Below, piece by piece: positions 13,232-15,372 of a stretch of DNA of 32,000 nt. The notes under the pieces are model-generated. The model ran no database searches. It saw nothing but the letters and a program-made list of their open reading frames with translations, and was not told where the DNA came from. The stretch is from Mojavia pulchra JT2-VF2 (lineage in GTDB: Bacteria > Cyanobacteriota > Cyanobacteriia > Cyanobacteriales > Nostocaceae): the NCBI GenBank assembly GCA_019359325.1, contig JAHHHN010000004.1, positions 266,026 through 298,025 on the forward strand, in the 5' to 3' direction. A program made the translations under genes and the position numbers. Numbering within the stretch: the first letter of the stretch is position 1; every line of letters begins with the position of its first letter.

Positions 13232-14105
13232 AAAACATAATCGCGATAAACAAGCTGAAGTTCTGCGTCGTACTCAAGCTCAAAGAAAGGAACAAAAAAA
13301 AGAGCAAGTATTAAAAGCAATTCAAGAAATACTTGCTCAAAAACAGCCATTAACATTTGCAAATATTGCAAATGTTTCTGGCTGTTCTATTTCTTATCTC
13401 TACAAATGGGATGAGATTAAGGCATATATCCACGAACTTCAACACGAAAAGGAGACTAAACTAAATCCCTTAGAAGAAAAAGACCCAAGACCCCATAGTC
13501 TTAAAACTTTACATGAAGTTTCTAAGCAAAGAATTAGAGAACTGGAAGCAGAAATTAGGGAACTCAAGCACCAGAATGAAAAACTTAGAGGTCATGTTGC
13601 AGAAATCAACGAACTCAGAGATGAGTGCGATCGCCTGCGATCGCAGTTACGAGAGAAAGCTTCTGCTGATTCATCGACAAAGATAATTCCCTTAAGAATA
13701 AATAAACCTGAGACAAGTTCCTCTACACCTGATACACCTAAACCCAGTGAAGTTCATACTGCTGATATTCAGCTAGAAGACTCGGATATCTTTCAATTCA
13801 TTAACGAAATGGGGATTAAGGTGAATTCAAAACTAAAGCAAGAAATAGCAAGTCGTGAATCTCATAAAGTTAAGTTATCAATTGAAGCTTTTCAAGAGTA
13901 TCGTAGTAAAACTGATATAGAGAATCCTGCTGCTTGCTTACTAACTATGATACGTGATGAAGCAAAACCTAATATTCCCGAAAAATCTACACCTAAACCA
14001 TCAAGTAAATCTTCAGTTGCTATGCAAAATAATCAAAAAAAATTAATTTCTCACGATAAGCTCAAACAACTTAGCAAGTTATTTAACGAAAAGAATGAAG
14101 AGTAA
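13224..14105 (+). CDS. accessory protein of the recombinase operon (GinD/TnpC position): basic N-terminus, putative HTH, coiled coil
   Basis: 8-nt overlap with the previous gene. A candidate HTH is LTFANIANVSGCSISYLYKW. A heptad-like coiled coil follows (IRELEAEIRELKHQNEKLRGHVAEINELRDECDRLRSQLRE), then a low-complexity S/T/P/K-rich C-terminal half. Confidence 0.7.
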   Translation: MAKKHNRDKQAEVLRRTQAQRKEQKKEQVLKAIQEILAQKQPLTFANIANVSGCSISYLYKWDEIKAYIHELQHEKETKLNPLEEKDPRPHSLKTLHEVSKQRIRELEAEIRELKHQNEKLRGHVAEINELRDECDRLRSQLREKASADSSTKIIPLRINKPETSSSTPDTPKPSEVHTADIQLEDSDIFQFINEMGIKVNSKLKQEIASRESHKVKLSIEAFQEYRSKTDIENPAACLLTMIRDEAKPNIPEKSTPKPSSKSSVAMQNNQKKLISHDKLKQLSKLFNEKNEE

Positions 14106-15372
14106 GCTAAAAAGACCAATAGCAATAGATCTATTTGCTGGTGCGGGAGGGCTAAGTTTAGGATTTGAGCAAGCTGGGTTTGATGTGAAAGCTGCCGTTG
14201 AAATCGATCCGGTTCATGCTGCTGTTCATAAGTTTAATTTTCCCTATTGCGTAGTATTACCTTGTTCGATAACTGAGTTATCGGGAAAAGATATTCGAGA
14301 AAGAAGTGGAATTGGCAACCAAAATATAGAAATTATTATCTCTGGGTCTCCCTGCCAGGGTTACTCCTATATGGGTCGTCGAGTATTAGACGATCCAAGA
14401 AATTTTTTAGTAAAAGATTTTATAAGATTAGTCTTAGAGCTAAAGCCTTCTTATTTCGTTTTTGAAAACGTCAAAGGTTTTACAGTTAGTAAATATCAAT
14501 CATTTTTAGATGAGTTAATCGAAACTTTCAGTAATAATAATTATCACATCTGTTTACCCTGGAAAGTCCTTAATGCTGCTTATTATGGAATACCACAAAA
14601 GAGAGAAAGACTATTTCTAATTGGCGCAAAGAAAGGTTGTGTCTTGCCTGAGTATCCTGCTCCATGTAGCCAACCACTGTTTGCAAAGTTAGCCAATCCT
14701 ATCTTACCTCCTACTCCATCTTGTTGGGATGCCCTCAAAGATTTGCCAGAAGCAGAAGAATTTGAAGAATTAGTATATAGTGATTGCGTTGAAACGGAGA
14801 AATGGAGCAATCCCAGCCACTATGGGCGAGAAATGAGATGTTTAGATGATAGTAGCTGGCATTTTGGCTATAGGAGAAATTGGAATCCCTTTCTTTTGAC
14901 TTCTAGCATAAGAACTAATCATTCACCAATCTCACGAGCTAGATTTCATGCTACAGAACAGGGAAAGAAAGAACCTGTTTCTCACTTCTTCAAATTGGCA
15001 GAAAATGGTATAGCTAATACTTTAAGGGCAGGAACTGATGCTGCTCATGGCTCACATACTTCTCCAAGACCTATTCATTACAGTAGCCCTCGCTGTATTA
15101 CTGTACGAGAAATGGCACGATTACATGGGTTTCCTGATTGGTTTCGTTTTCACATCACAAAATGGCATGGTGCGAGACAGGTAGGAAATTCAGTTCCGCC
15201 ACCATTGGCGAGAGCAATTGCTACAGAAATTATGAAATGTTTGGGAATGAATCCAACTACTCCTGAAGATGTTTTGGATCTGGGAGATCCCAAACTTTTA
15301 TCAATGACTATGAAACAAGCTGCAAATTATTGGCAGCTTAGTATACCAACTAAAGATATTATCAATGTCTAA
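14095..15372 (+). CDS. dcm: C5-cytosine DNA methyltransferase, intact, paralogue of the interrupted host gene
   Basis: All core motifs are present: I DLFAGAGG, IV GSPCQGYS, VI FENV, VIII QKRERLFLIG, IX TLRAGT, and X GNSVPPPLARAIA. It overlaps ORF D by 11 nt. It is colinear with the reconstructed host gene over the full length. Confidence 0.95.
   Translation: MKSKLKRPIAIDLFAGAGGLSLGFEQAGFDVKAAVEIDPVHAAVHKFNFPYCVVLPCSITELSGKDIRERSGIGNQNIEIIISGSPCQGYSYMGRRVLDDPRNFLVKDFIRLVLELKPSYFVFENVKGFTVSKYQSFLDELIETFSNNNYHICLPWKVLNAAYYGIPQKRERLFLIGAKKGCVLPEYPAPCSQPLFAKLANPILPPTPSCWDALKDLPEAEEFEELVYSDCVETEKWSNPSHYGREMRCLDDSSWHFGYRRNWNPFLLTSSIRTNHSPISRARFHATEQGKKEPVSHFFKLAENGIANTLRAGTDAAHGSHTSPRPIHYSSPRCITVREMARLHGFPDWFRFHITKWHGARQVGNSVPPPLARAIATEIMKCLGMNPTTPEDVLDLGDPKLLSMTMKQAANYWQLSIPTKDIINV

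Follow-up and report, generated by a model that had tools for sequence, protein, structure and literature searches.

A 32,000-nucleotide stretch of the genome of Mojavia pulchra JT2-VF2 (contig JAHHHN010000004.1, positions 266,026 to 298,025 of the forward strand; hereafter the window, in whose numbering positions are given) contains a host gene for a C5-methyltransferase that is split in two. As read from its genes and its termini, the insert at 8753-22542 is a 13.8-kb site-specific integrative element of the Tn554 family. It interrupts the host gene, here called hMT, at the catalytic codon of what we take to be dmtC, and it carries an intact gene of the same kind, called eMT. We think it probable that the element works by target replacement, in that it disrupts dmtC at the catalytic codon and supplies a replacement methylase. 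The evidence comes from the exact position of the insertion, from the association of target and cargo in related elements, and from the occurrence of eMT-type (e-type) genes, in place of hMT-type (h-type) genes, at the same chromosomal locus in other cyanobacteria.

The split gene and the element-borne methylase

The frame of the host C5-methyltransferase starts at 8499, breaks off after ...GGC TCA CC at 8752, and resumes at 22543 with C TGT CAA GGG. Deleting 8753-22542 (13,790 bp) gives an uninterrupted, in-frame C5-methyltransferase of 426 aa, and the break point is found to lie between the Pro and Cys codons of motif IV (GSP|CQ). The 5' part (8499-8752, + strand) consists of codons 1-84 and two bases of the codon for Pro85, and is 90% identical to its counterpart in Nostoc T09 and WHI. 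The 3' part (22543-23569, + strand) begins with the last base of the Pro codon, followed by the catalytic Cys codon, and runs through to the stop; P0146 matches it at 100%, and context look-ups for P0146 and P0121 turned up no record.

The element-borne gene eMT (14095-15372, + strand) encodes a C5-methyltransferase of 425 aa. It matches PF00145 over its full length (E = 6e-66) and TIGR00675 (2.8e-56), and the alignment shows all the expected motifs: I (FxGxG), IV (PCQ), VI (ENV), VIII (QxRxR), IX, and X (GNSVPP). The two proteins are colinear, as the preliminary description of the window had stated from the letters alone; they align with 53% identity over 413 aa and 5 gap positions (E = 2e-163). 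Their N parts are 62% identical, the variable regions with the target-recognition domain 45%, and motifs IX-X 75%, and the variable region can be aligned over its whole length. Relatives of eMT with 60-63% identity occur in Proteobacteria, one of them with a Vsr fusion. Among the cargo copies dN/dS is 0.09-0.22, which is the mark of purifying selection, so eMT is selectively maintained. The start of eMT overlaps the stop of the TnpC-like gene before it, and its stop overlaps the start of dnaB.

What is the host gene? It lies directly after lpxB, and more than 120 intact orthologues with 67-87% identity were found across the Nostocales. In Nostoc PCC 7524, an intact gene with 83% identity to hMT stands directly after lpxB and represents the empty site. 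Table S4 of Elhai gives the 5-methylcytosine (m5C) CGATCG methylase DmtC as alr2276 in Anabaena PCC 7120 and Nos7524-0178 in PCC 7524, and DmtD as alr4173 and Nos7524-4974, respectively. The PCC 7524 orthologue of hMT (locus L055) is at 206 kb, a position consistent with gene number 178. From this position and gene numbering, we infer that hMT is dmtC, the orphan m5C methylase of CGATCG. CGATCG is the core of the HIP1 repeat, dmtC has been described as an orphan methylase, and the group of CGATCG methylases includes M.XorII (Elhai), with which the proteobacterial relatives of eMT are in keeping. M.Ssp6803I is counted in this group with DmtC and M.XorII.

Two repeats were noticed at the borders of these genes. 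AATTACG heptamers stand at both ends of the host dmtC (8474-8512 and about 23540-23560), which is why the hMT protein begins MNYEL and finishes IMNYELQQT; they could promote recombination at the dmtC locus. AATG(TCT)AAGAGTAA is found at both borders of the eMT segment (14084-14106 and 15361-15380), and in the element of Calothrix HK-06 one copy of it makes up the overlap of the tnpC stop and the dnaB start. It may be a microhomology trace of the entry of eMT into the element.

Target specificity

The lpxB-dmtC locus of Nostoc T09 and that of WHI contain this element too, in the same position and the same orientation, with the junctions GGGAGTCC|TTATAAC and GGCTCACC|TTATAAC, respectively. Between the window and T09, the synonymous divergence (dS) is 0.11 for rec1, the first recombinase gene of the element, and 0.10 for eMT, while that of the host genes lpxA+lpxB is 0.58. 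The corresponding values for WHI are 0.14, 0.29, and 0.77. Since the dS of the element (0.10-0.29) is far below that of the hosts (0.58-0.77), the insertions must be horizontal and independent.

Insertion at the invariant codons of motif IV, which had been pointed out in the preliminary description, is common to a methylase-targeting sub-lineage of the family, taken here as elements with rec3 at least 67% identical. These share the target P|CQ, which was found in four different C5-methylase genes, the Nostoc dmtC included. In L077/L079 the target is an h-like dmtC-family gene (GGAP|CQGFS), for which both junctions were seen; the codon position and the orientation of the insert are those found in the window, T09, and WHI. 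In Calothrix HK-06 it is a short methylase of about 330 aa, interrupted at ...CACC|TTGCCAAGATTTTAGC, and in Nostoc FACHB-888 it is a methylase of the GGFP|CQ type. To the left of the crossover the sequence varies freely, and the common feature is the coding sequence of motif IV.

The crossover cores in the window are TCACC on the left (8748-8752) and CCACC on the right (22538-22542), one base apart; one of the two copies may have been carried over from a donor site. Other members of the family have cores of 5-6 bp repeated at both junctions in identical copies, namely TGATCT (L015), CGTTA (L022), and GCGCC (L077/L079). The core of Tn554 is likewise short and located at the junctions, and its two copies need not match. 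The left end of the element (8753-8856, + strand) carries the terminus TTATAACAACAAC, a conserved sequence that stands at a distance of about 104 nt before rec1 in about 35 family loci. Within it, TATTCCACAAT (8773-8783) is the inverted partner of ATTGTGGAATA (22519-22529), which is located in the right end (22410-22537, + strand). The right end terminates in ...ACTATAAT and is conserved with the right end of the HK-06 element, and right ends in the family have in common ...TTGTRGAATAAnnATAAT. On excision, a circular form would join ...ACTATAAT[C/T]CACCTTATAACAAC..., with restoration of GGC TCA CCC TGT CAA at the host site.

At the crossover core, host and element copies differ at four synonymous positions (GGC TCA CCC TGT CAA vs GGG TCT CCC TGC CAG). 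These differences, noted in the preliminary description, are real, and the suggestion made there that they protect the element from self-insertion was examined and rejected. In eMT and hMT, 62% of the identical degenerate residues use different codons, and the probability that at least 4/5 differ is 0.37, so that the differences are at chance level. Moreover, cargo copies in the sister elements of Nostoc WHI, P12650, and L056 have the host-type core TCA CCC TGT CAA GG(G/A/T).

Association of target and cargo

The element of Calothrix HK-06 has no eMT, and its tnpC and dnaB overlap directly. After dnaB it has a gene for a 328-aa methylase, which is 61% identical to its own interrupted target. 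In HK-06, target and cargo have thus both been switched. The elements of L077/L079 carry a 422-aa eMT homologue with 70% identity in the same slot as in the window element. L056/L057 hold a two-recombinase relative whose rec1 is only 38% identical; it interrupts a dmtC-family gene at FVM|ENV, and its cargo is an 84% identical eMT homologue and an 82% identical DnaB. An intact methylase of the target's subfamily is present in 4/5 independent methylase-targeting lineages, vs 0/20 other loci (Fisher p = 4e-4, to be read as indicative only), the 20 comparison loci being other family members with at least 2 kb of sequence beyond tnpC. This covariation of target and cargo, together with the presence of the cargo type at the target locus in other genomes, provides support for the target replacement proposed in the preliminary description.

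Is a cargo paralogue of the target the rule throughout the family? We compared the flank protein with the interior of its own element, locus by locus, and rejected such a rule. Matches were obtained only in the methylase-targeting loci, in L012, where the target is a rival recombinase, and in L030 (DUF29). A reading of the flank translation puts the L030 insertion about 50 codons upstream of the likely DUF29 start, outside the gene.

e-Type alleles at the chromosomal locus

In Desmonostoc muscorum, Nostoc CP170991, Goleter apudmare, and a fourth assembly (L050, L051, L053, and L059), the gene directly after lpxB is of the eMT type. These four chromosomal genes are 81-86% identical to eMT and are in full synteny with window 1-8370, and their homology to the element is restricted to the open reading frame (ORF; window 14089-15354). 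An e-like gene with 67% identity is also present in Myxosarcina (Pleurocapsales), on the chromosome among housekeeping genes. The eMT gene would be a divergent dmtC allele of a type found chromosomally in Myxosarcina; the h and e types thus occupy one locus, and both appear to be dmtC-group genes. Their sharing of one locus is the best available argument that eMT is likely to have the same specificity as hMT, CGATCG.

For eMT and the gene on the chromosome of Goleter, dS is 0.34, with a host dS of 0.85, and for eMT and the Desmonostoc gene it is 0.49, with a host dS of 0.78. As the e-type values are below those of the hosts, the e-type alleles are young relative to their hosts. For the h-type gene of the window vs that of PCC 7524, dS is 1.65. 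The 5' end of the Goleter gene is h-type at 31/32 nt and e-type from within motif I, so that the gene contains a recombinant junction, and in Fischerella thermalis there is a protein with an N-terminus that looks h-like as well. Alleles thus move between element and chromosome, and the data are compatible with flow either way. The divergence of eMT keeps step with that of the backbone, going from 98% to 70% identity while rec3 goes from 94% to 67%, which suggests a long association with the element. The shapes of neighbor-joining trees were used only in combination with the identity and dS tables.

We also considered the chromosomal e-type genes as chimeras that site-specific recombination had produced at motif IV, with an h-type N part and an e-type C part. 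This was rejected, since they are e-type throughout, and the sole h-type stretch in them is the one of about 30 nt at the 5' end of the Goleter gene.

Relationship to Tn554

The core genes of the element follow its left end in the order rec1, rec2, rec3, and a gene for a DUF6262 protein, all on the + strand. The product of rec1 (8857-9969) is a TnpA-like tyrosine recombinase of 370 aa (Pfam PF00589, 6e-31). That of rec2 (9972-11414) is an extra TnpB-like tyrosine recombinase of 480 aa (PF00589, 3e-8), and that of rec3 (11414-13231) is a large TnpB-like tyrosine recombinase of 605 aa with an N-terminal zinc-ribbon module. The TnpC-like DUF6262 protein (13224-14105) has 293 aa (Pfam PF19776, 1.4e-12). 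Tn554 was reached by tblastn of rec3 against plasmids, where it is located on pWBG4 with the gene order tnpA, tnpB, tnpC (annotated DUF6262), spc, and ermA. The rec1 product is 30% identical to Tn554 TnpA over 328 aa (E = 8e-44), the rec3 and rec2 products match TnpB with E = 7e-19 and E = 4e-12, and the DUF6262 protein matches TnpC in blastp with E = 9e-9. This homology to TnpA, TnpB, and TnpC in the same order makes the element a member of the Tn554 family in which the TnpB-like gene is duplicated. In a comparison with recombinase-in-trio (RIT) elements, the three tyrosine recombinases do stand in tandem, but their best relatives are Tn554 TnpA and TnpB. NCBIfam gave no family-level name for rec2, rec3, or DUF6262 and no trio assignment above cut-off.

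More than 170 homologues of rec3 were found, nearly all of them cyanobacterial where the source is named, and a scan of one genome per species gave 48 loci with the same core. In many of these DnaB follows DUF6262 directly. The targets in the wider family include a RecD-like helicase (at DQLPSV), a Strawberry-notch-like helicase (motif VI, QSLGRT|), an AAA_24 ATPase (Walker B, IIIDSL|), a transglutaminase core, an APH-like kinase (LVDPDH|), the recombinase gene of a rival Tn554-like element, and a short xCHLxYH...GQLSLF ORF. In L004-L046 the rec1 products are 72-87% identical, yet unrelated genes are targeted at conserved catalytic motifs.

Proposed mechanism and alternatives

The methylase-targeting sub-lineage recombines at DNA encoding the invariant Pro-Cys-Gln of C5-methyltransferase motif IV. 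We propose that the eMT protein would then restore CGATCG methylation, and that through this substitution the insertion into a widely conserved gene would cost the host little, while the element would gain a target that exists in nearly every host. The element-borne allele may also recombine into the chromosomal locus, which would explain the e-type alleles at lpxB-dmtC in some Nostocales. It is conceivable, and we put it forward tentatively, that the methylase-targeting lineage is a selfish allele-replacement system, which knocks out the resident allele, supplies its own, and fixes it chromosomally by recombination between the cargo and the split gene. Such a system would explain why the e-type dmtC alleles are young and spread horizontally, and how the h/e mosaic in Goleter arose. 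If it exists, target specificity and cargo would co-evolve, as in HK-06, and this would lead to moves to new methylase families.

Several points weigh against target replacement. Most of the wider family has other targets and carries no methylase. The preliminary description had named unrelated targets and a lack of methylases in relatives as findings that would speak against its proposal; these are what we see in the wider family, but not in the methylase-targeting sub-lineage, so the logic of replacement holds only for the latter. The lineages compared in the association test are few and related. In the element of FACHB-888, nothing but the final 70 codons of eMT is left, so that under some circumstances the cargo can be done without. 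The catalytic activity of eMT and its specificity for CGATCG are predicted, and its identity to hMT in the variable region is only 45%. The name dmtC for hMT comes from gene numbering and position. Finally, strains mutated in dmtC or slr0214 have been reported to survive, with growth impaired mildly or only under certain conditions, and the cost to be compensated may therefore be small.

Could the kinship of eMT and its target be without functional meaning? In that case eMT would be ordinary anti-restriction or defence cargo, which we consider unlikely. The variable cargo is rich in restriction-modification genes, with type I remnants in the window element and ResIII plus an N6/N4 methylase in L076-L079; eMT has decayed in FACHB-888, and dmtC-type methylases are common in cyanobacteria. 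Coincidence does not fit with the association in 4/5 vs 0/20 cases, with the joint change of target and cargo in HK-06, or with the same cargo on a distantly related backbone that has a dmtC-family target, and the genes of the eMT type are, by their position, alleles at the locus that is targeted. Cargo copies have stayed intact under purifying selection even as the identity of the backbone falls from 94% to 67%, and HK-06 has swapped in a methylase that matches its new target; both points argue against passive capture, the least probable of the explanations considered here. On that view eMT would have been taken from a former target locus by local recombination and would persist without a selected role. 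Consistent with such an origin, the chromosomal e-type genes are homologous to the element over the ORF only, the eMT segment lies between tnpC and dnaB, which overlap in HK-06 and adjoin in many relatives, and ATG(TCT)AAGAGTAA is found at both of its borders.

The preliminary description had also suggested that the replacement methylase would prevent restriction-mediated killing. In its full form, this would mean that the target guards the host against a cognate restriction enzyme, so that only elements with an isospecific methylase can knock it out safely. This is plausible for methylases of defence islands; a DpdA-like gene comes after the HK-06 target, and the Elhai table lists CGATCG restriction genes in a few cyanobacteria. 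For dmtC we regard it as very improbable, because dmtC is described as an orphan, no restriction gene adjoins it here or in L050, L051, L053, L055, and L059, and the dmtC and slr0214 mutants survive; the claim of restriction-mediated killing is not upheld. It is also decidedly unlikely, if a little less so, that the natural targets are conserved genes of other mobile elements, eMT-like methylases included, and that dmtC is struck by homology. Three Nostoc genomes have the insertion in the dmtC of the chromosome, next to the lpx genes, the target in L077/L079 is an h-like dmtC-family gene (seen without its genomic context), and no trio element was seen inside an e-type cargo gene. In favour of such an origin of the targets, L010 and L012 are inside the recombinase gene of another Tn554-like element, and other targets (the RecD-like and Strawberry-notch-like helicases and the AAA_24 ATPase) are typical of mobile elements. 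Likewise, the target methylase in FACHB-888 adjoins a distant DnaB and an ASCH gene, and probably sits on another mobile element. Target replacement remains the reading that we prefer for the methylase-targeting sub-lineage.

Comparison with known systems

In its machinery, the closest precedent for the element is Tn554 of Staphylococcus aureus. The two have homologous TnpA-TnpB-TnpC proteins encoded in the same order at the left end, and both insert at one site, in one orientation, with a short junction core. Tn554 inserts at att554, reported within radC. A DnaB helicase and one more TnpB-like recombinase set the cyanobacterial element apart from Tn554, and while Tn554 carries resistance genes and no replacement for its target, the cyanobacterial element carries a copy of the target. 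Prophages and islands in tRNA genes, and e14 and phage 21 in icd, also insert in conserved genes with their function kept. These elements duplicate only the displaced 3' segment and leave an intact hybrid gene, whereas the present insertion leaves the host gene in two real pieces, broken at its catalytic codon, and the element brings a complete paralogue of its own. Inteins and homing introns similarly target the most conserved codons, so that targets exist in many hosts. However, splicing is what restores the gene in their case, and they spread through repair driven by an endonuclease, in contrast to the dmtC element, which uses tyrosine recombinases and, as proposed, would restore the function in trans.

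The heterocyst interruption elements of nifD, fdxN, and hupL (Hilton et al. 2016, PMC4874684) are cyanobacterial, use tyrosine or serine recombinases, lie inside ORFs, and leave the gene intact on excision. They differ from the dmtC element in having a single recombinase each and no Tn554-type core, and in them the function comes back by developmental excision, not by a carried copy. The word 'methyltransferase' has no occurrence in the full text of that paper. In its logic, the closest precedent is RME of Vibrio cholerae S24, which integrates at a specific site in recA and brings along the recA of another Vibrio, 23% divergent (Rapa et al. 2014, PMC4405046). Its authors consider that the carried recA copy makes the disruption harmless (PMC4405046). 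Like the dmtC element, RME is a site-specific island inside a conserved gene with an intact, divergent copy of that gene on the element. Unlike it, RME has a phage-type integrase plus XerS and 9-bp inverted repeats, inserts in either orientation, and targets recA rather than a methylase, and neither covariation of target and cargo across lineages nor replacement of the chromosomal allele has been reported for it.

The principle is therefore already known; what is new is the recombinase family, the class of gene, the way in which target and cargo covary, and the evidence that alleles at the targeted locus turn over. The dmtC element would be a second, independent case in which a gene is disrupted and replaced, with a recombinase family and a kind of gene different from those of the recA island, and it adds comparative evidence of joint change of target and cargo that is absent from the recA case. 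We found no description in the open-access literature of a cyanobacterial Tn554-like family or of a methylase-targeting element with a replacement methylase. Thus, a widespread cyanobacterial branch of Tn554 is apparently undescribed, and it raises the question of how such close recombinases gained such different specificities. A mobile element would also be a driver of allele turnover at dmtC, a gene linked to the unexplained HIP1 repeat, and natural strains with one or the other allele could help to test the role of CGATCG methylation. Recombinases aimed at a sequence in nearly every C5-methylase gene may be of use as an integration tool in cyanobacteria.

Other features of the window and the family

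The gene for a DnaB-type replicative helicase of 437 aa (15365-16678, + strand; Pfam and NCBIfam) is followed by variable cargo (16716-22400; Pfam), which is not in the T09, WHI, or HK-06 elements. Similarity to these three ends at about 16,640-16,715, so that what the element shares with its closest relatives runs from 8753 to about 16715 and again over 22410-22542. Among the ORFs of the element, none was recognised as a conjugation gene. On the - strand, 16858-20731 is a type I restriction-modification remnant without counterpart in the T09, WHI, and HK-06 elements. It comprises a truncated HsdR of 773 aa (16858-19179; Pfam) and an intact HsdM of 520 aa (19169-20731; Pfam). The N-terminal part of HsdR is gone, since the Pfam matches start from residue 68, at SWI2_SNF2 profile position 54; the first 67 residues are without a Pfam match and look HsdS-like by eye. 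The rest of the variable cargo is a 201-aa ORF with no assignment (20746-21351, - strand), a gene for a helix-turn-helix regulator (21597-21890, + strand), and a 100-aa ORF (22019-22321, + strand).

Outside the element, and unrelated to the insertion, 25244-31885 encodes a sensor histidine kinase of 2213 aa. It has a long array of near-identical repeats of ~92 aa, which appear by eye to be of the HAMP type, and past these repeats GAF, kinase, and several receiver domains were tentatively assigned by eye.

After the interrupted short methylase in HK-06 (L003 8781-9659) comes a DpdA-like gene of 7-deazapurine DNA modification (PF23859, 5e-10), and this methylase target may lie in a DNA-modification or defence island. 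In L056 (7027-9249), the DnaB gene is followed by a 170-aa C-terminal fragment of a RecD-like protein (SH3_13, UvrD_C_2) and then by a GmrSD-type gene. The 3' part of the methylase was not found downstream in L056, which may contain a second, nested insertion.

A nested insertion in the rec1-like gene of a distant Tn554-like element, at GL(K/R)HEDI, is seen in L010 (75-5250) and L012 (6214-6644). At least 8 loci (L008, L024, L029, L033, L034, L040, L045, and L046) have a common left-flank target, the reverse strand of which encodes the end of a short ORF, xCHLxYH(R)xxxGN(I/V)SxGQLSLF. A metagenome scan with the left-end pattern TTATAACAACAACARTTTTRT gave 15 loci, of which 2 are real family members, both with the APH-like target; the remaining loci were rejected as AT-rich chance matches.

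The zinc-ribbon module of rec3 (residues about 9-69; window 11414-11620) is present as a single copy in the window element, and in 2-5 tandem copies in L005, L007, L024, L026, L029, L033, and L045, whose targets differ. These repeats are a candidate target-recognition array. The chromosome of Gloeomargaritales VI4D9 has three copies of a family member (L030, L031, and L043) with identical protein matches and the variant terminus TATAGACC. The L030 and L043 copies have the same immediate left flank, and L031 has a different one. The L030 copy stands beside a DUF29 gene, with two DUF29 paralogues to its right.

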